From the IMG/VR virus record IMGVR_UViG_2695420705_000025: 37,564 nucleotides of DNA. The stretch is one strand, 5' to 3'. Positions 3,214 to 36,918 of the stretch are shown here, piece after piece (position 1 is the stretch's first letter; each line of letters starts with the position of its first letter). The translations under genes and the position numbers were made by a program. The notes beneath the pieces were generated by a model that saw only the letters and a list, made by a program, of their open reading frames with translations, had not been told where the DNA came from and did not search any database. This DNA is from a virus. Its lineage: Duplodnaviria > Heunggongvirae > Uroviricota > Caudoviricetes.

Positions 3214-3441
3214 ATGATGGCCCGAAATATAAAAATGGCAACGGATGCGCAGAACTGGTTACAGGCGCGCGGGAGTCATGTAAATGAATCATATCTCGGC
3301 GTGGCGCGTCCGATTCTTGAAATCACTTACCCACCGGTGGAACTGGTAAAAAACGCGGTCAGAATTATGGAGCATAAATCCGGAGTTGCCCGTTCTGTAT
3401 GGACGGCCCGTCTTAATGGTTGCCAGATTATCTGGAGATAA
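3214..3441 (+). CDS. kil: Kil host-killing protein (small early protein)
   Basis: 75-aa ORF immediately downstream of B, the position of Mu kil; GAAGGAGAAG Shine-Dalgarno upstream. Confidence 0.7.
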
Positions 3442-3443
3442 CG

Positions 3444-3674
3444 ATGTGTATTAAAGCTGAAAAATATATTGAATGGGTTAAACACTGTCAGTGCCACGGG
3501 GTGCCGCTGACGACATATAAATGCCCCGGATGTGGTGAACAGATTATGACGCAATGCTCACCCGAAAAGGAAATTCGGGATTCCATGACATGTTGTCCGT
3601 GGTGCAGCGCAGTTTTCTTTAAACAGGTAAAAGGCGCGAAGGTAAAAGCCAGCGCGGTTATTCAGAATCAATAA
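3444..3674 (+). CDS. Small Cys-rich Zn-ribbon protein, early accessory region, function unknown
   Basis: Start chosen at the ATG at 3444 with a GGAGAT SD 5-6 nt upstream (the track ORF starts at 3420 and overlaps kil). Contains HCQCH, CPGC and CCPWC cysteine clusters. Confidence 0.6.
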   Translation: MCIKAEKYIEWVKHCQCHGVPLTTYKCPGCGEQIMTQCSPEKEIRDSMTCCPWCSAVFFKQVKGAKVKASAVIQNQ

Positions 3675-3685
3675 GGTGAAACAAA

Positions 3686-3949
3686 ATGGCAAAAGTAATT
3701 ATTGAAATTAAAAATACAGTATCTGGAATTAAAGGACGGAATTTGCGCACCAGCATTGCGGTGGACGGTAGTGCGGAACTGGACGGTGATGAGGGTACAC
3801 TTGCTGGCATGGTGGCGTTACTGGTGCTTAATAAAAGCCAGAAAGTAATTAATGAGTCAGCCCATGAAGCTATTGAGATTTTGAAAAACGATGGTGTCAT
3901 CACCGGTGGCCGTGTCACTGAAATGGCTGTTGAAAAAACATGCCACTGA
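3686..3949 (+). CDS. Hypothetical early protein (87 aa)
   Basis: ORF with AAGGTGA SD; colinear with the early operon. Confidence 0.55.
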   Translation: MAKVIIEIKNTVSGIKGRNLRTSIAVDGSAELDGDEGTLAGMVALLVLNKSQKVINESAHEAIEILKNDGVITGGRVTEMAVEKTCH

Positions 3950-3963
3950 AAGGAACGCTGACA

Positions 3964-4383
3964 ATGAACGTCAAAATCCGAAATGAAATTCAGGCATTAA
4001 TCCGAATTCAGGAACGCAATAACAACGGTGGTGAATTACGCGAGTTTATTTGCGCCCGGAAAGTTGATGGTTATGGTGAAAAGACTTACCTAATTACTTT
4101 CGACCATTACAGCATCTGTGCGCGTTATTGTGGCGAAAGCATATCCCGCGCCATTGCGTCTGGCGATGCGTTTAACGTGGATTTATGGGAGTACGTCATG
4201 GACCGTGAATACATCTGTGTATCAGACCCGAAAGCCCGTGATATGTGGCAGCGTATCTGGCGCGATTACCGGTTAATGGCAAAAGGCTGGGCGCGCTGCT
4301 GTTATTCCTCGCTTGCCCTGAAAGCAGTTCAGTTATCGCTGCGGCATATTCCGGCATCACTGCGCGAGCCTCTGTTGTACTGA
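3964..4383 (+). CDS. Hypothetical early protein (about 139 aa)
   Basis: Track ORF 3940-4383; internal ATG at 3964 is preceded by an AAAGGAA SD and is preferred as start. Confidence 0.55.
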   Translation: MNVKIRNEIQALIRIQERNNNGGELREFICARKVDGYGEKTYLITFDHYSICARYCGESISRAIASGDAFNVDLWEYVMDREYICVSDPKARDMWQRIWRDYRLMAKGWARCCYSSLALKAVQLSLRHIPASLREPLLY

Positions 4384-4683
4384 ATGGTGGCTGACATGAA
4401 GTGTAATCGTAAGCGCTGGTCACGCGAAGACCGGGAATTTATCGAAGCCAACGTCGGGAAAATGACCGTTGAAGAAATGGCGGAAAAACTGAAAGTCGCC
4501 ACAACCGCCCTCCGGGCACATGCCAGAAGGCACGGAATATCATTGTGTATATACCGAATCAGTGAGCACGACAAATATTTGTGTCGTGAACTTTATAAAG
4601 AAGGGCTGGATATTCATGTCATTGCCCGAAAGATGGAATTAAGCAATCGTGCTGTATCCAGCATTGTATACAGCGGATATTAA
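4384..4683 (+). CDS. Hypothetical early protein with two helix-turn-helix-like segments
   Basis: 99-aa ORF (alternative start at 4399, MKCNRKRW). Predicted helical DNA-binding-like segments by eye; not verified. Confidence 0.5.
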   Translation: MVADMKCNRKRWSREDREFIEANVGKMTVEEMAEKLKVATTALRAHARRHGISLCIYRISEHDKYLCRELYKEGLDIHVIARKMELSNRAVSSIVYSGY

Positions 4684-6556: not shown

Positions 6557-6865
6557 ATGAATAATGGTGTATTTTCAAAATCAGAAGAGCTTGCCGCCCT
6601 GCTGATTGCCGGTGGTTTGCCGAAAAAAGAAGTGCATGACTTTGTGAATTTTGTATATGAGACGTCTCATGAAAAAGCTATTGATGAGGTCATGGCGTAC
6701 CGGTTTGGCATTATTGCTGAGTCACTGAGTCCTCACTGGATTATTGAAAATCTCCGCGCTATTGCTGATGGCAACGATAAATCAGCAGCCGTTGCTGCAC
6801 TGGATGTGTTACGGCAAATGAGTCTGAAATTTTATCCTGAATTTATTCTGAGGGCCGCAAAATGA
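6557..6865 (+). CDS. Hypothetical early protein (about 102 aa)
   Basis: ATG at 6557 preceded by a GAAGGTGAG SD; the track ORF starts at 6542. Confidence 0.55.
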   Translation: MNNGVFSKSEELAALLIAGGLPKKEVHDFVNFVYETSHEKAIDEVMAYRFGIIAESLSPHWIIENLRAIADGNDKSAAVAALDVLRQMSLKFYPEFILRAAK

Positions 6866-7164
6866 ACAATGAAGATAAATTTACTCCCCTTAATATTGAT
6901 AACGTCATGGCTGAAAAAGGGATGCTGGAACGTGTTCGCGCTATCGTTGAATATGGTATTAAGCATAATCTCACCGCCAGAGAAGTCCGTGACATTATCA
7001 ACCGCGAAATGAATCGTCTGGAAACAGTAGTGGCACTGCAAAATGAAACAGCCCGCGAGGAGTACATCCGCCGCAGGCTGGGGTTATCAGACCAGGATAT
7101 TGTTACTGACGCTCATGTGTTTGAGGCTTTTGAGATCCGTCAGCATCTGGGTCTAACGAACTGA
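6862..7164 (+). CDS. Hypothetical early protein (100 aa)
   Basis: ORF overlapping the upstream stop (ATGA); last + strand ORF before the gemA upstream gap. Confidence 0.5.
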   Translation: MNNEDKFTPLNIDNVMAEKGMLERVRAIVEYGIKHNLTAREVRDIINREMNRLETVVALQNETAREEYIRRRLGLSDQDIVTDAHVFEAFEIRQHLGLTN

Positions 7165-7369
7165 TAATGTCTTCCATGATCTTTGACAGTTGCATGTTTT
7201 CGCGGCGGCTTGTTCTTATTGCAGGCGCATCTTTTAAAATCTCTGCTGAAGAGCTGAAAATGGCCTGGCCCTCTTCTGCGGTGATGATCGCCTTCTTCAC
7301 CAGAAGGCGCACCAGTGCTGATGCAATCGCATAACCTGCAACATCATAAGGTTGTACATTATTTTCCAT
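7103..7369 (-). CDS. Candidate minus-strand small protein (88 aa), function unknown
   Basis: The only sizeable minus-strand ORF in the otherwise unidirectional early region. It covers most of a 274-bp stretch (7165-7438) with no + strand ORF of 60 aa or more, and has a GAGAGGA SD 4 nt upstream of its ATG. Its 3' end overlaps the 6862-7164 ORF by 62 nt. Confidence 0.35.
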   Translation of the reverse strand: MENNVQPYDVAGYAIASALVRLLVKKAIITAEEGQAIFSSSAEILKDAPAIRTSRRENMQLSKIMEDIISSLDPDADGSQKPQTHERQ

Positions 7370-7399
7370 AAAATCCTCTCTGATTGATGTGTAAATTCA

Positions 7400-7426
7400 G
7401 GCGGTGTTGCAGCACCGCCTCTTTCC
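7400..7426 (+). promoter_or_regulatory. GC hairpin just upstream of the gemA RBS (possible attenuator)
   Basis: GGCGGTG-TTGCAG-CACCGCC stem-loop followed by TCTTTCC, directly 5' of the GGAGG SD of gemA. Confidence 0.3.
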
Positions 7427-7438
7427 GGAGGTACGATC

Positions 7439-7990
7439 ATGAATCGCACATCCCTGATTAAATTAATCCATGTCGCCCGTCGGGAGCTACAACTCGACGA
7501 CGACACTTACCGAGCTTTTCTGATGCAGAAAACGGGCAAAATCAGTTGCCGCGAGCTGACGGTTACGCAACTGGAACAGGTGCTCGATGCCATGAAAGAA
7601 CGCGGCTTTAAGAAGCTGAATAAACATCCACGTCGCCGCTTTAAGGGGCATGTCACGCCCCGCGAGAAGGTATACAAAGTCTGGCAGCAGATGGCAGAAG
7701 ACGGTTTTATTACCGATGGCGGTGATGTGGCGCTGGATAAATATGTTCAGCGCCTGACGGCGAAACGTAATGGCGGACAGGGTGTTTCCACGCTGGCGTG
7801 GTGTCATGGCGACACCCTGTTGATTGTTCTCGAAACTCTCAAGCAGTGGCATATCCGCTGTATTCGTGAAGCCTTTTCCCGTCACGGGCTTCCGTTGCCA
7901 GTCAGTCCGTCCGGGCGTGAACTGCGCGGCTATGATGCCATGACGGCGGCTTATGCCCATGCCAGAAAGACACGGAGGATGGCACAATGA
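7439..7990 (+). CDS. gemA: GemA (host gene expression modulation protein)
   Basis: 183 aa, MNRTSLIKLIHVARRELQLDDDTYRAFLMQKTGK..., recognised as Mu GemA; immediately precedes mor. Confidence 0.85.
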   Translation: MNRTSLIKLIHVARRELQLDDDTYRAFLMQKTGKISCRELTVTQLEQVLDAMKERGFKKLNKHPRRRFKGHVTPREKVYKVWQQMAEDGFITDGGDVALDKYVQRLTAKRNGGQGVSTLAWCHGDTLLIVLETLKQWHIRCIREAFSRHGLPLPVSPSGRELRGYDAMTAAYAHARKTRRMAQ

Positions 7991-8376
7991 CGGAAGATTT
8001 ATTTGGTGATTTGCAGGATGACACCATCCTGGCACATCTTGACAATCCCGCAGAGGATACGTCACGCTTTCCGGCACTGCTGGCGGAGCTGAACGATTTA
8101 CTGCGCGGGGAATTGTCCCGGCTGGGTGTTGATCCTGCCCATTCACTGGAGATTGTTGTGGCTATCTGTAAGCATCTGGGCGGCGGTCAGGTCTACATTC
8201 CACGCGGTCAGGTTCTGGACTCGCTGATTCGGGATTTGCGTATCTGGAATGATTTTAACGGTCGCAACGTCAGCGAACTGACCACCCGTTATGGTGTCAC
8301 TTTCAATACGGTTTACAAGGCCATTCGCCGGATGCGACGGCTGAAATACCGCCAGTACCAGCCCTCACTTCTGTAA
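7987..8376 (+). CDS. mor: Mor, middle operon regulator (activator of Pm)
   Basis: 129 aa recognised as Mu Mor; clearly paralogous to the C protein ORF downstream (shared IPRGQ/IPCGD and RQ-R-L motifs). Confidence 0.9.
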   Translation: MTEDLFGDLQDDTILAHLDNPAEDTSRFPALLAELNDLLRGELSRLGVDPAHSLEIVVAICKHLGGGQVYIPRGQVLDSLIRDLRIWNDFNGRNVSELTTRYGVTFNTVYKAIRRMRRLKYRQYQPSLL

Positions 8377-33114: not shown

Positions 33115-34362
33115 TTAAACGCTCGCTACATTATACCAGGTGCCATTTATATACTTTTGAACGGGTCTGTAATAAACGCCCGCTATATTATCGGCAGAGT
33201 TGGACCCTGTATCCTGAACATTAATACCAGACAATACATGACCTGACGGGCACTGGAAATTCCATGTTTGCCAGTTGTTCACACCATGATATTGCTGTGA
33301 ACCAAGACGAACATCTTTCACATAGCGGGAATCAAAATTCCCCCAGTTGCTGGGTTGTATCTGACCGTTAACAGCAAATATCACCGAGTTATCTGTATTT
33401 CGCTGACTATAGAAATGCCAGCCTGAATCATCACCAAGCTCTGCAACAGTTGGTCTTGACGAATTTCCCCACAAGCTAAATGATGCATTACGGGCAGCGG
33501 TATTTGCACTTGAAAGTGTGAAGAACTTACTTTCCCCAGCCTGAATACCCTTTAATGATCTTGCTGAACCATTTATAAAGCGGAATACATGCACACCATT
33601 AGCATAAGCATCCAGCACCCCATCACCATTTTGTTTAAACCCGGTATCGTTATCTCCTAAAACTATTGAATTTCCACCCAGGGCATTAGCCGTTCCAATC
33701 CCCAGATTTCCGCTAAAAATGGCATTAATACCGAGTATTGAGTGAGAACAATAAAACCCTCGCCCATTGTTAAAATCCAGAATGGCTTGTGCGTTCGTGC
33801 TTTCTGTCGCGGGATTAGTTGCTCCCCACTTATATGTTGTTTGACCGACAGTATAATCCTGAGTTGGAACAATAACCGTTAGCCCTTCTTCAGCAGAAAC
33901 CCGCACAGGAAAAGCCCTGCCTTCAACGTAAAAAACGCTGCATACATCATCTTCTTTAAGGCTTGTTACAATGGAATGGATTGCGCGCTCATTAGTCTGA
34001 TACGTCGAAAAATAACCTGCCGCATATGAACCACGATCAGTCCAGCCACCAGGCATTACCATTCCATTGAATTCGCAGTTATTCATTGCGTAATCACTAC
34101 TGGCACATGTGGTCGTTATAATCACTCTGGAAGCCAGCTCGCCAGTGCCGCCTGTGGAACGCCGGAAAATAACTGGATACCACTTTCCACCAATTGCATT
34201 AGACGGCGCATTAAATGCGTACTGCCGCATTCCTTTTTTCTTATCCACCTCGCCTTTGCTGTAAACATTAATGTTACTCAGGAAGCGATCCTTATCAGGA
34301 ATATCCGCGCCGTTCTGGTTTTTCTGTAATGCGCCAGAAGCCTGATTTACCGTTTCCTGCAA
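33115..34362 (-). CDS. S': Sv', alternative variable tail fibre domain; startless ORF that opens at gixR
   Basis: Minus-strand ORF whose first codons (LQETVN) are encoded by the gix repeat; the in-frame codon upstream is TAA and the apparent start is TTG. So it has no start of its own and is expressed only after inversion fuses it to Sc. Shares the motif [22 protein letters not shown] with S. Confidence 0.85.
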   Translation of the reverse strand: MQETVNQASGALQKNQNGADIPDKDRFLSNINVYSKGEVDKKKGMRQYAFNAPSNAIGGKWYPVIFRRSTGGTGELASRVIITTTCASSDYAMNNCEFNGMVMPGGWTDRGSYAAGYFSTYQTNERAIHSIVTSLKEDDVCSVFYVEGRAFPVRVSAEEGLTVIVPTQDYTVGQTTYKWGATNPATESTNAQAILDFNNGRGFYCSHSILGINAIFSGNLGIGTANALGGNSIVLGDNDTGFKQNGDGVLDAYANGVHVFRFINGSARSLKGIQAGESKFFTLSSANTAARNASFSLWGNSSRPTVAELGDDSGWHFYSQRNTDNSVIFAVNGQIQPSNWGNFDSRYVKDVRLGSQQYHGVNNWQTWNFQCPSGHVLSGINVQDTGSNSADNIAGVYYRPVQKYINGTWYNVASV

Positions 34363-34375
34363 ACCGAGGTTTTAG
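34340..34375. repeat. gixR, right inverted repeat / Gin recombination site of the G segment
   Basis: Reverse complement matches gixL; located 59 bp upstream of the gin start. Confidence 0.85.
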
Positions 34376-34433
34376 ATAATGGCTGTTTCCGGCCTGCATG
34401 GCATGATTTGCGCTTTTAAACGGGAGATCCAGA

Positions 34434-35027
34434 GTGCTGATTGGCTATGTAAGGGTATCAACAAATGACCAGAATACAGACCTGCAACGAAACGCTCTTG
34501 TTTGTGCAGGATGTGAACAAATATTTGAAGATAAATTAAGCGGAACAAGGACAGACAGACCTGGATTAAAACGCGCTTTAAAGCGCCTTCAAAAAGGTGA
34601 CACACTTGTTGTCTGGAAACTGGATCGCCTCGGGCGAAGCATGAAACATTTGATTTCTCTCGTAGGGGAATTACGAGAGCGAGGGATTAATTTTCGCAGT
34701 CTTACTGACAGTATTGATACGTCATCTCCAATGGGGCGTTTTTTCTTCCACGTTATGGGTGCCCTGGCTGAGATGGAACGAGAACTAATCATCGAGCGAA
34801 CGATGGCTGGACTTGCTGCCGCCAGAAATAAAGGCCGTATTGGTGGGCGACCACCTAAACTAACCAAAGCGGAATGGGAGCAGGCCGGGCGTTTATTAGC
34901 ACAAGGAATCCCCCGCAAGCAGGTTGCATTGATCTACGATGTGGCCCTGTCAACTCTGTATAAAAAACACCCCGCGAAACGAACGCATATAGAAAACGAC
35001 GATCGAATCAATCAAATCGATCGGTAA
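34434..35027 (+). CDS. gin: Gin serine recombinase (DNA invertase), copy 1
   Basis: 197 aa from a GTG start, MLIGYVRVSTNDQNTDLQRNALVCAGCEQIF... with catalytic serine in VRVST; recognised as Mu Gin. Confidence 0.92.
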   Translation: MLIGYVRVSTNDQNTDLQRNALVCAGCEQIFEDKLSGTRTDRPGLKRALKRLQKGDTLVVWKLDRLGRSMKHLISLVGELRERGINFRSLTDSIDTSSPMGRFFFHVMGALAEMERELIIERTMAGLAAARNKGRIGGRPPKLTKAEWEQAGRLLAQGIPRKQVALIYDVALSTLYKKHPAKRTHIENDDRINQIDR

Positions 35028-35035
35028 TACAGATC
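35001..35035. promoter_or_regulatory. Cluster of three GATC (Dam) sites, mom upstream regulatory region, copy 1
   Basis: GATC at 35001, 35019 and 35032, overlapping the gin 3' end and upstream of com. Mu mom is known to be controlled by Dam methylation and OxyR binding at three upstream GATC sites. Confidence 0.6.
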
Positions 35036-35109
35036 GATTATGTCTCAATAACCACACTCAACCCATGATGTTTTTTAAGATAGTGGCGAATTGATGCAAA
35101 GGAGGTGAG

Positions 35110-35280
35110 ATGAAATCAATTCGCTGTAAAAACTGCAACAAACTGTTATTTAAGGCGGATTCCTTTGATCACATTGAAATCAGGTGTCCGCGTTGCAAAC
35201 GTCACATCATAATGCTGAATGCCTGCGAGCATCCCATGGAGAAACATTGTGGGAAAAGAGAAAAAATCACGATCTCCTAA
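35110..35280 (+). CDS. com: Com-like translational activator, C-terminally altered copy created by the duplication junction (56 aa)
   Basis: Identical to com through codon 54 (zinc-finger cysteines intact), then reads IS-stop across the junction at 35271/35272 instead of HSDETVRY-stop. No mom gene follows this copy. Confidence 0.6.
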   Translation: MKSIRCKNCNKLLFKADSFDHIEIRCPRCKRHIIMLNACEHPMEKHCGKREKITIS

Positions 35281-35982
35281 AACTATTGAATTTCCACCCA
35301 GGGCATTAGCCGTTCCAATCCCCAGATTTCCGCTAAAAATGGCATTAATACCGAGTATTGAGTGAGAACAATAAAACCCTCGCCCATTGTTAAAATCCAG
35401 AATGGCTTGTGCGTTCGTGCTTTCTGTCGCGGGATTAGTTGCTCCCCACTTATATGTTGTTTGACCGACAGTATAATCCTGAGTTGGAACAATAACCGTT
35501 AGCCCTTCTTCAGCAGAAACCCGCACAGGAAAAGCCCTGCCTTCAACGTAAAAAACGCTGCATACATCATCTTCTTTAAGGCTTGTTACAATGGAATGGA
35601 TTGCGCGCTCATTAGTCTGATACGTCGAAAAATAACCTGCCGCATATGAACCACGATCAGTCCAGCCACCAGGCATTACCATTCCATTGAATTCGCAGTT
35701 ATTCATTGCGTAATCACTACTGGCACATGTGGTCGTTATAATCACTCTGGAAGCCAGCTCGCCAGTGCCGCCTGTGGAACGCCGGAAAATAACTGGATAC
35801 CACTTTCCACCAATTGCATTAGACGGCGCATTAAATGCGTACTGCCGCATTCCTTTTTTCTTATCCACCTCGCCTTTGCTGTAAACATTAATGTTACTCA
35901 GGAAGCGATCCTTATCAGGAATATCCGCGCCGTTCTGGTTTTTCTGTAATGCGCCAGAAGCCTGATTTACCGTTTCCTGCAA
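35272..35982 (-). pseudogene. Truncated second copy of the Sv' 5' region (N-terminal 237 codons)
   Basis: Exact copy of 33652-34362; the reading frame continues into junction-derived sequence (track ORF 35146-35982). Confidence 0.8.
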
Positions 35983-35995
35983 ACCGAGGTTTTAG
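35960..35995. repeat. Third gix site (duplicate of gixR), in direct orientation to gixR and inverted relative to gixL
   Basis: Identical to 34340-34375 at an offset of 1620 bp. Confidence 0.85.
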
Positions 35996-36053
35996 ATAAT
36001 GGCTGTTTCCGGCCTGCATGGCATGATTTGCGCTTTTAAACGGGAGATCCAGA

Positions 36054-36647
36054 GTGCTGATTGGCTATGTAAGGGTATCAACAAATGACCAGAATACAGA
36101 CCTGCAACGAAACGCTCTTGTTTGTGCAGGATGTGAACAAATATTTGAAGATAAATTAAGCGGAACAAGGACAGACAGACCTGGATTAAAACGCGCTTTA
36201 AAGCGCCTTCAAAAAGGTGACACACTTGTTGTCTGGAAACTGGATCGCCTCGGGCGAAGCATGAAACATTTGATTTCTCTCGTAGGGGAATTACGAGAGC
36301 GAGGGATTAATTTTCGCAGTCTTACTGACAGTATTGATACGTCATCTCCAATGGGGCGTTTTTTCTTCCACGTTATGGGTGCCCTGGCTGAGATGGAACG
36401 AGAACTAATCATCGAGCGAACGATGGCTGGACTTGCTGCCGCCAGAAATAAAGGCCGTATTGGTGGGCGACCACCTAAACTAACCAAAGCGGAATGGGAG
36501 CAGGCCGGGCGTTTATTAGCACAAGGAATCCCCCGCAAGCAGGTTGCATTGATCTACGATGTGGCCCTGTCAACTCTGTATAAAAAACACCCCGCGAAAC
36601 GAACGCATATAGAAAACGACGATCGAATCAATCAAATCGATCGGTAA
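36054..36647 (+). CDS. gin: Gin serine recombinase (DNA invertase), copy 2
   Basis: Identical to the 34434-35027 copy. Confidence 0.92.
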   Translation: MLIGYVRVSTNDQNTDLQRNALVCAGCEQIFEDKLSGTRTDRPGLKRALKRLQKGDTLVVWKLDRLGRSMKHLISLVGELRERGINFRSLTDSIDTSSPMGRFFFHVMGALAEMERELIIERTMAGLAAARNKGRIGGRPPKLTKAEWEQAGRLLAQGIPRKQVALIYDVALSTLYKKHPAKRTHIENDDRINQIDR

Positions 36648-36655
36648 TACAGATC
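36621..36655. promoter_or_regulatory. Cluster of three GATC (Dam) sites, mom upstream regulatory region, copy 2 (the one actually upstream of com-mom)
   Basis: Same sequence as 35001-35035 at an offset of 1620 bp. Confidence 0.6.
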
Positions 36656-36729
36656 GATTATGTCTCAATAACCACACTCAACCCATGATGTTTTTTAAGA
36701 TAGTGGCGAATTGATGCAAAGGAGGTGAG

Positions 36730-36918
36730 ATGAAATCAATTCGCTGTAAAAACTGCAACAAACTGTTATTTAAGGCGGATTCCTTTGATCACATTGAAAT
36801 CAGGTGTCCGCGTTGCAAACGTCACATCATAATGCTGAATGCCTGCGAGCATCCCATGGAGAAACATTGTGGGAAAAGAGAAAAAATCACGCATTCTGAC
36901 GAAACCGTGCGTTATTGA
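36730..36918 (+). CDS. com: Com, zinc-finger translational activator of mom
   Basis: 62 aa, [62 protein letters not shown], with CxxC...CxxC zinc finger; overlaps the mom start. Confidence 0.9.

Follow-up and report, generated by a model that had tools for sequence, protein, structure and literature searches.

Morons, in the sense of Juhala and Hendrix, are extra genes that sit in a phage operon, carry their own promoter and Rho-independent terminator, and are expressed from the prophage. We studied a small gene that resembles them in a stretch of viral DNA of 37,564 nucleotides (nt), the IMG/VR record IMGVR_UViG_2695420705_000025, which is called the window below. The window is a Mu-type phage: over positions 6800-7600 it is 99.9% identical to Yersinia vB_YpM_5/6, 99.8% identical to Shigella SfMu and 97.8% identical to Mu (megablast). 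The region of interest is the interval between gp14 and gemA in the early region, which holds an open reading frame (ORF) of 88 amino acids (aa) on the minus strand and a GC-rich hairpin directly before gemA. Most of the semi-essential early region of Mu, a reference phage, still lacks an explanation.

The minus-strand ORF itself is not new, as it is already in RefSeq. An earlier, sequence-only reading of the window took it that no reverse gene is annotated here in Mu, but RefSeq record NC_000929 has Mup15 on the minus strand at 7896..8162. In SfMu the gene is annotated as gp16 (YP_009152202.1, NC_027382), on the same strand and in the same slot between gp14 and gemA. The opposite-strand slot between these two genes is also found in E. 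coli, Salmonella and Klebsiella prophages, and PGAP calls the gene in E. coli prophages. A 1991 record of the left end of Mu, M64097, listed a longer version, 'F-134', as a putative minus-strand ORF. The current GenBank Mu record, AF083977.1, whose update is acknowledged in PMC9239132, drops gp15 and carries a 55-aa plus-strand coding sequence (CDS), Mu_54, instead. RefSeq and GenBank disagree on Mu at this locus, and the comparison reported here favours gp15, disfavours Mu_54, and adds a homologue in phage D108.

Our overall reading, which we hold to be probable, is that gp15 is a real coding gene forming a compact leftward unit, and that the hairpin is a separate element linked to gemA. To our knowledge, the grouping of gp15, the D108 gene and their variants as one superfamily, the terminator within gp14, and the covariation of the gemA hairpin have not been described previously.

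Evidence for coding on the minus strand

The 88-aa ORF was found as the sequence-only reading had described it, together with the GAGAGGA ribosome-binding site (RBS). That reading had also stated that 7165-7438 holds no plus-strand ORF of 60 aa or more, and the longest one there is indeed 55 aa. A homology check on the 88-aa protein, which the same reading had proposed, was run and matched a phage family, PHROG 8747, along with Mu gp15 and SfMu gp16. The ORF is 95.5% identical to Mu gp15 and 100% identical to SfMu gp16 (tblastn), and it matches phrog_8747 over its full length, residues 1-88 of 88, with E 1.3e-60. By these matches the ORF is a member of the Mu gp15 family (Mup15, NP_050619.1; PHROG 8747), and it is called gp15 below.

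The length of the ORF alone is unremarkable. Many antisense ORFs occur in the window, one of them 219 aa long and within gemA, and the minus-strand ORF is significant because it is conserved, not because it is long. The 219-aa ORF lies on the minus strand at 7487-8146, covers nearly all of gemA and part of mor, and was taken as an antisense shadow. M64097 listed an ORF similar to it as the putative 'D-196'.

A second proposed check, conservation in frame, was run on E. coli prophages which are about 73% identical to the window over 7050-7500. The minus-strand ORF in this clade is still 88 aa long and free of gaps. The third codon positions of gp15 and of the plus-strand 55-aa ORF coincide, and therefore simple periodicity cannot separate the two. 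Over the stretch that they share, the ratio of nonsynonymous to synonymous substitution rates (dN/dS, or omega) by the Nei-Gojobori method (NG86) came out lowest in the minus frame, at 0.25-0.33. The plus frame gave 0.35-0.46 and the remaining four gave 0.84-2.5. The residues identical to the 73% clade numbered 24-25 of 55 for the minus frame vs 19 of 54 for the plus frame, with BLOSUM62 sums of 123 and 64-76 respectively. Substitutions by site class were 17/66, 24/67 and 38/66, which gives the codon order 2 < 1 < 3 only for the minus frame.

Codon usage was evaluated with a sense-versus-shadow log-odds score trained on 17 genes of the window. The score of gp15 was +0.39 bits/codon, a value that none of the shadow windows attains; the mean for real genes is 0.48 +/- 0.18. 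The plus ORF scored -0.12 bits/codon, and just 1% of real-gene windows are that low. The start position of the plus ORF shifts between clades, and the longest plus-strand ORFs in the D108, Salmonella and Klebsiella-type loci have another frame, length and start codon. For the plus 55-aa ORF, neither PHROGs nor Pfam gave a significant match. The last 20 codons of gp15 lie over the 3' end of gp14, in an overlap of 62 nt. Substitutions in this overlap fall on gp14 third positions (7/21, vs 3/20 and 2/21 for the other two), and therefore gp14 sets the constraint there.

A diverged superfamily in the same slot

About 150 gemA loci from phage, viral-contig and genome collections were scanned, and some ten to twelve distinct variants of the reverse gene were found in E. 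coli, Salmonella, Klebsiella and Citrobacter. The D108 locus (L005, NC_013594) has no detectable DNA similarity to the window left of the hairpin. Between its gp14 and gemA lies a 119-aa minus-strand ORF (locus 1111-1470, record 7856-8212) which is annotated in neither D108 record and matches phrog_38610 with E 8e-83. It is a homologue of Mu gp15, with a Shine-Dalgarno (SD) sequence of its own and a strong terminator. The homology was seen in two ways. A single family, phrog_32893, was matched over the same ~45 residues, with E 2e-4 to 2e-10, by gp15, the 73% clade, the Salmonella type P0008, the D108 type and an E. coli 112-aa gene (L014). Profile-profile comparison with hhalign also joined the two subfamilies, with a probability of 91.6% and E 8e-7.

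The variants have in common the motif [YF]-D-x-A-[AG]-[YF]-x-[ILV]-A-x-x-L-[LIM]-x-x-L-V-x-K-G-[VI]-I. Throughout the superfamily the ATG of the reverse gene is 63-73 nt from the gemA ATG, and a purine-rich SD precedes the start codon in the ~10 variants whose upstream sequence was read, within flanks that differ. Identity within the superfamily is 13-50%, which indicates fast evolution. A profile search added clusters from Klebsiella/Raoultella, Citrobacter and Salmonella, all labelled 'hypothetical' and all with the same synteny, and a HMMER search of 1.84 billion representative proteins returned just four real clusters. One HMMER match, P0005, was rejected as spurious: it is a 1438-aa Asp-rich tandem-repeat protein whose score was summed over 12 repeats.

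These remote homologues are the decisive line for minus-strand coding. Weighing them with the comparisons above, we conclude that the minus-strand gene is real and that Mu_54 is most probably its antisense shadow and not a gene. The preference of GenBank for Mu_54 over gp15 is not supported by the comparisons. The sequence-only reading had left room for the ORF being spurious, and the conservation evidence speaks for a genuine gene.

The slot is not always filled. Clean deletions of gp15 were found in vB_YpM_3/23 and L011/L047, and in vB_YpM_3/23 and L050 gp14 runs directly into the hairpin and gemA. Because it is deleted in these relatives, and because one copy of the family (P0004) is frameshifted, gp15 is dispensable. 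Many Mu-like prophages have no reverse gene in the slot at all, and others carry a DUF2513/phrog_585 gene. This alternative reverse gene is DUF2513-like, 134-138 aa long, and has its ATG 30 nt from the gemA ATG. It was seen in E. coli Mu-like prophages (L016, L036, L038, L039, L041, L042, L051, L052, L057, L059, L064 and L074), where a small inverted repeat, TCTCAT-N8-ATGAGA, takes the place of the GC hairpin. The DUF2513 alternative shows that there is some exchange of cargo in the slot. That the slot is a mere variable hotspot for cargo was rejected as the main story, since most occupants belong to one diverged superfamily.

Two further insertions were seen near these genes. In L021, a Salmonella Aberdeen contig, an IS256-family transposase (Transposase_mut; locus 3236-4444) lies in the 3' end of the gp15-family gene and accounts for the aberrant C-terminus of P0007. 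In L017/L018, a Salmonella Mu-like prophage, a 111-aa opposite-strand gene and a 63-aa gene lie between gemA and mor (locus 1860-2387), which makes a second reverse-strand insertion near gemA/mor.

A leftward terminator within gp14

About 22 nt past the gp15 stop codon, the minus strand holds a GC-rich stem-loop of 10+3 base pairs (bp) (CAGCCUGCGG...UCGCGGGCUG), followed by the tract UUUCAUUUUG. The minus-strand fold has an energy of -26.4 kcal/mol (z -2.65). The same kind of terminator, with another sequence and often a better U-tract, follows the reverse gene in D108, in the Salmonella and Klebsiella-type loci, and in others. AF083977.1 itself carries a TransTermHP terminator in the same place, at Mu 7839..7873 (about 7046-7080 of the window).

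The terminators were compared in the nine variants whose downstream region was folded at full length; the folded slice of L149 stopped short. Their consensus has 12 pairs, with 92.6% of cells paired and compensatory changes in 5 pairs; the observed covariation was not reached by any of 500 shuffles. Read as minus-strand RNA, 100 of the 108 cells are paired (17 of them as G.U), vs 84 of 108 when read as plus-strand RNA. A U-tract follows the stem on the minus strand in 9/9 variants. The signal is strand-specific, and it therefore points to selection for a leftward terminator and hence to a leftward transcription unit. At the level of sequence, this comparison marks the gp15 cassette as a leftward transcription unit with its own Rho-independent terminator. 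No other unit on the opposite strand was found in the early region of these phages.

A conserved hairpin linked to gemA

The hairpin, the TCTTTCC tract after it and the gemA RBS are all located where the sequence-only reading had placed them. The hairpin sequence is present once in the window. Its stem is 7 bp long, or 8-9 bp with G.U or A-U extensions, and as plus-strand RNA it folds with -20.9 kcal/mol in context (z -2.75), with none of 200 shuffles as good.

The hairpin precedes gemA in most enterobacterial Mu-like loci, and its stem, often with the loop, is conserved even where GemA is just 45-50% identical. Pairing is 100% in 7 distinct variants, and compensatory double changes affect 3 of the 7 pairs, a value matched in 7 of 500 shuffles. 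Compensated stems include AGCGGTG...CACCGCT in L013 and GGCGGCT...AGCCGCC in L014. One variant has a closing pair that is G.U on the plus strand, and in some variants the loop is flipped (TTGCAG vs CTGCAA). In every variant the plus-strand stem is followed by a T-rich tract, ranging from weak, as with TCTTTCC in the window and CCCTTTCC in Mu, to canonical, as with TTTTTTTT in L021 and TTTTTAAAGG in L013.

The sequence-only reading had treated the ORF and the hairpin as one feature. This did not hold up: the hairpin goes with gemA, and the terminator of the gene lies outside the interval that had been reported. The hairpin accompanies every gp15-superfamily gene seen, and it is also kept where the reverse gene is missing. 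The loci that show this are the deletions L006/L050 and L011/L047, then L012/L071, whose hairpin is abutted by a plus-strand gene, and L013, whose stem is compensated. Since it is retained where the reverse gene is absent, it belongs to gemA or to the rightward RNA and not to gp15. Judged by this distribution, the hairpin is a separate conserved element linked to gemA and distinct from gp15.

Attenuation of read-through into gemA-mor, which the sequence-only reading had offered as one option, is plausible. We would tentatively see the hairpin as a leaky plus-strand terminator or attenuator. A less probable function, though one to be kept in mind, is that of a 5'-terminal stem in the gemA-mor message made from the annotated semi-early promoter. 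AF083977.1 has a 'semi-early promoter' feature at Mu 8151..8217 (about 7358-7424 of the window) which covers the hairpin. In addition, a position weight matrix (PWM) scan showed that a weak A/T element resembling a -10 box recurs in several families on the plus strand, immediately before the hairpin, and this element fits the reading as a 5'-end stem. No alternative antiterminator structure was found for the hairpin, and Rfam matched no family.

The gp15 protein

AlphaFold models of gp15 contain helices at residues 7-25, 31-45 and 61-72, with a mean predicted local distance difference test (pLDDT) of 65-70. The tail encoded in the gp14 overlap is predicted to be disordered, with pLDDT below 50. 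By a count of charged residues in the translation the net charge is about -3, and the D108-type protein is strongly acidic by inspection. The charged residues R21, K25 and K26 interrupt the conserved helix, which argues against a membrane span. As modelled, gp15 is a small soluble three-helix protein without a known domain.

For gp15 there was no significant match in Pfam, NCBIfam, PADLOC or a PDB sequence profile, PHROGs gave families of unknown function only, and fold searches with gp15 returned only generic bundles. General library scans returned no helix-turn-helix for the gp15 family. The SHOCT-like family PF22746 was hit in 2 of 10 members (best E 0.0014) and SHOCT_2 (PF20612) also in 2 of 10 (E 0.14-0.16), all below the cut-offs, and the gp15 protein of the window itself matches no Pfam SHOCT model. 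SHOCT membership was rejected on these matches below threshold and is kept as a lead only.

Layout of the locus and other features of the window

The gp14-like gene on the plus strand and gp15 on the minus strand converge, with the gp15 terminator sitting within the gp14 CDS. On the other side gp15 and gemA are divergent, and their start codons are 69 nt apart. Coordinates are collected in Table 1.

Table 1. Features of the window between the gp14-like gene and gemA, in window coordinates.
Feature	Position	Strand	Details
gp14-like early gene	6862..7164	+	100 aa; PHROG 6075, E 2.7e-54; annotated as Mup14 in Mu
gp15 Rho-independent terminator	7039..7080	-	stem-loop 7080->7049, U-tract 7048-7039; inside gp14 CDS
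gp15-family CDS	7103..7369	-	88 aa; ATG start; TAA stop at 7105-7103
55-aa plus ORF, equivalent of Mu_54	7167..7334	+	starts 3 nt past gp14 stop codon
gp15 Shine-Dalgarno GAGAGGA	7374..7380	-	reverse complement of window letters; 4 nt before ATG
Hairpin GGCGGTG-TTGCAG-CACCGCC	7400-7419	+	7+6+7 nt; followed by TCTTTCC tract 7420-7426
gemA Shine-Dalgarno GGAGG	7427-7431	+	
gemA CDS	7439-7990	+	Pfam GemA, E 2.5e-30

At the other end of the window, 33652-35271 (1620 bp) is repeated exactly in tandem at 35272-36891. Both copies include a 197-aa gin-like invertase ORF (34434..35027; 36054..36647) and, from the invertible G segment, its right inverted repeat (34324-34379; 35944-35999). The tandem repeat is either a real duplication or an assembly artefact.

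Weighing the alternatives

Several points weigh against the overall reading. The shared third codon positions make the dN/dS contrast between the minus and plus frames modest on its own. A sigma-70 consensus scan of 6800-7800 found no promoter for the leftward unit. The best positionally conserved PWM candidate, TTAATC-17-GATCGT on the minus strand at 7461-7433, overlaps the gemA RBS and ATG and is weak: its score here, 3.2 bits, places it in the top 0.5% but falls short of the top 0.1%, and in the L007 clade the score is 6.8 bits. The suggestion in the sequence-only reading of a moron-like reverse gene with its own promoter stands in part, as the gene is genuine and has a conserved SD and a strand-specific terminator, but the scans revealed no convincing sigma-70 promoter. 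No RNA-seq or 5' mapping of the region, on either strand, was found in the searchable literature, and a search of the literature on gem operon promoters, gp15 and Mu RNA-seq gave nothing usable. The distinct base composition of a moron is not seen in gp15, which has no compositional sign of being a foreign insert. Its GC content is 0.46, next to 0.455 for gp14 and 0.487 for the upstream semi-essential early (SE) region, and gemA/mor are higher, at 0.53-0.54. As for the hairpin, the window tract TCTTTCC has 4 T in 7, below the scan criterion of 5 T in 8, and is a poor terminator U-tract. Any termination at the hairpin must also be partial, because Mor needs to be expressed from the early transcript.

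Against this background, the choice of Mu_54 by a curated re-annotation of Mu deserves an answer. If the plus 55-aa ORF were the real gene, translationally coupled to gp14, and the minus ORF its antisense shadow, the early region would stay unidirectional. The plus ORF starts 3 nt after the gp14 stop, as in other tightly packed early genes, and it is also open in the 73% clade, with omega there below 1 (0.35-0.46). It does worse than the minus frame, though, on identity, BLOSUM and omega, its codon usage is shadow-like, its start shifts between clades and it has no family match. It also has no counterpart in D108, Salmonella, Klebsiella-type and other loci which keep the minus gene, and it leaves the minus-strand terminator and the conserved minus-strand SD unexplained, so we regard a real Mu_54 as very unlikely. 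We give hardly any credence to the idea that neither ORF codes and that the interval is a non-coding spacer or regulatory region before gemA with ORFs arising by chance. Antisense ORFs of such size are common in the window, the family is narrow (Enterobacteriaceae Mu-like prophages only) and without a known domain, and the interval is deleted in some phages without obvious harm; yet substitutions show a three-base periodicity, omega is well below 1 solely in the two linked frames, the frame is kept at 73% nucleotide identity, the SD and terminator are conserved, and protein homology outlasts DNA similarity. The cassette might instead act mainly as RNA, with leftward transcription or the ~380-nt antisense RNA gating gemA-mor and the protein being secondary. 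Interference or antisense pairing would then keep leaky early transcription from reaching Mor in lysogens. The unit converges on transcription driven by the early promoter Pe, directly before the gene pair that triggers middle and late transcription. A leftward terminator flanks it on one side and a rightward terminator-like hairpin on the other. Its distance of 63-73 nt from gemA is fixed while its sequence turns over, and DUF2513/phrog_585 reverse genes fill the same slot elsewhere. A pure RNA role would have no need of purifying selection on the protein or of a conserved domain, many Mu-like prophages have no reverse gene in the slot, and the consensus and PWM scans found no promoter beyond the weak candidate. 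On balance a mainly RNA-level role seems unlikely to us.

The hairpin has a rival explanation of its own, in which the inverted repeat is not an RNA hairpin but a palindromic DNA operator for divergent gp15 and gemA promoters. The repeat is central in a 69-bp divergent control region and the GenBank 'semi-early promoter' feature overlies it. Stem and loop sequence are unusually conserved, even at 45-50% GemA identity. A dimeric binding protein would also give symmetric changes in the half-sites, and a flipped loop (TTGCAG vs CTGCAA) would be tolerable for a DNA site. However, gp15 has neither a helix-turn-helix motif nor basic character, and no DNA-binding protein is assigned to the repeat. 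An operator would have no need of a plus-strand T-rich tract in all variants, or of the G.U closing pair in one of them, and an uninterrupted, GC-rich stem of 7 bp closed by a 6-nt loop is what RNA hairpins typically have. We find the operator doubtful, and prefer to read the repeat as an RNA hairpin linked to gemA.

Proposed mechanism and significance

The leftward unit of gp15 stands head-to-head with gemA and consists of an SD, a 267-nt CDS and, ~22 nt further on, a terminator in the antisense strand of gp14. It would give a leftward RNA of ~350-400 nt, made against the direction of the early operon, which would stop before running antisense through the remaining early genes. A weak promoter overlapping the gemA start may drive gp15, and the gene may be expressed mainly when Pe is repressed, as in a prophage, like a moron or accessory gene. 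The gem gene is reported in the literature to act even in lysogens. The gp15 protein may have an accessory role through binding another protein, and the hairpin may control the amount of rightward transcription or translation that gets as far as gemA and Mor, the activator of the middle genes.

A further step would be to see the gp15 cassette and the gemA hairpin together as a conserved insulator or gate before the lytic switch genes gemA-mor. Leftward transcription would end in gp14 and would collide and pair with leaky early transcripts, the hairpin would trim the rest, and production of Mor would have to wait until Pe is fully derepressed. In the lysogen, the fast-evolving protein with its three helices would serve as an extra effector, directed for instance at superinfecting phages or at a host factor. 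We consider this whole chain of steps improbable. If it is true, a textbook phage has in this gate a layer of lysogeny control that had so far gone unrecognised.

The most likely outcome for gp15 is that of an ordinary accessory gene, and without a regulatory effect that is what it would be. The leftward unit with its terminator hidden in gp14 adjoins gemA-mor, which start the middle and late programme. If the reading of gp15 as a coding gene is true, the current Mu reference annotation removed a real gene.

Comparison with known systems

The hairpin can be compared with intra-operon Rho-independent attenuators and with 5' stabilising stem-loops. It is like them in its GC-rich 7-bp stem, 6-nt loop and pyrimidine- or T-rich tract, in its place 7 nt before the gemA Shine-Dalgarno, and in its compensatory changes. 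It differs from attenuators in the weak U-tract of the window and Mu, and in that no antiterminator alternative was found.

The protein can be compared with the SHOCT and SHOCT-like domains (PF20612, PF22746). The gp15 motif L-L-x-x-L-V-x-K-G-[VI]-I-[TD]-x-x-E resembles the SHOCT consensus and, in the AlphaFold models, lies within a helix-turn-helix hairpin formed by helices 7-25 and 31-45. It differs in that the domain of gp15 is N-terminal and the matches are below threshold.

Mu gp15 and SfMu gp16 are the same gene as the window ORF, with nothing different in kind, and are without a published function. The closest kind of element, as far as sequence can tell, is the moron. Like a moron, gp15 is a small accessory gene between two genes, gp14 and gemA, that are adjacent in vB_YpM_3. 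Its orientation is independent of the operon, it is dispensable, and it has a factor-independent terminator of its own. It differs from a moron in that sigma-70 scans found no gp15 promoter beyond the weak PWM candidate, in that its terminator and 3' end are interwoven with the gp14 CDS, and in that it is not sporadic: gp15 is an old resident of this exact slot in Mu-like prophages of several genera. The features which gp15 does share with morons are a terminator of its own directly downstream and presence or absence between genes that are neighbours in relatives.

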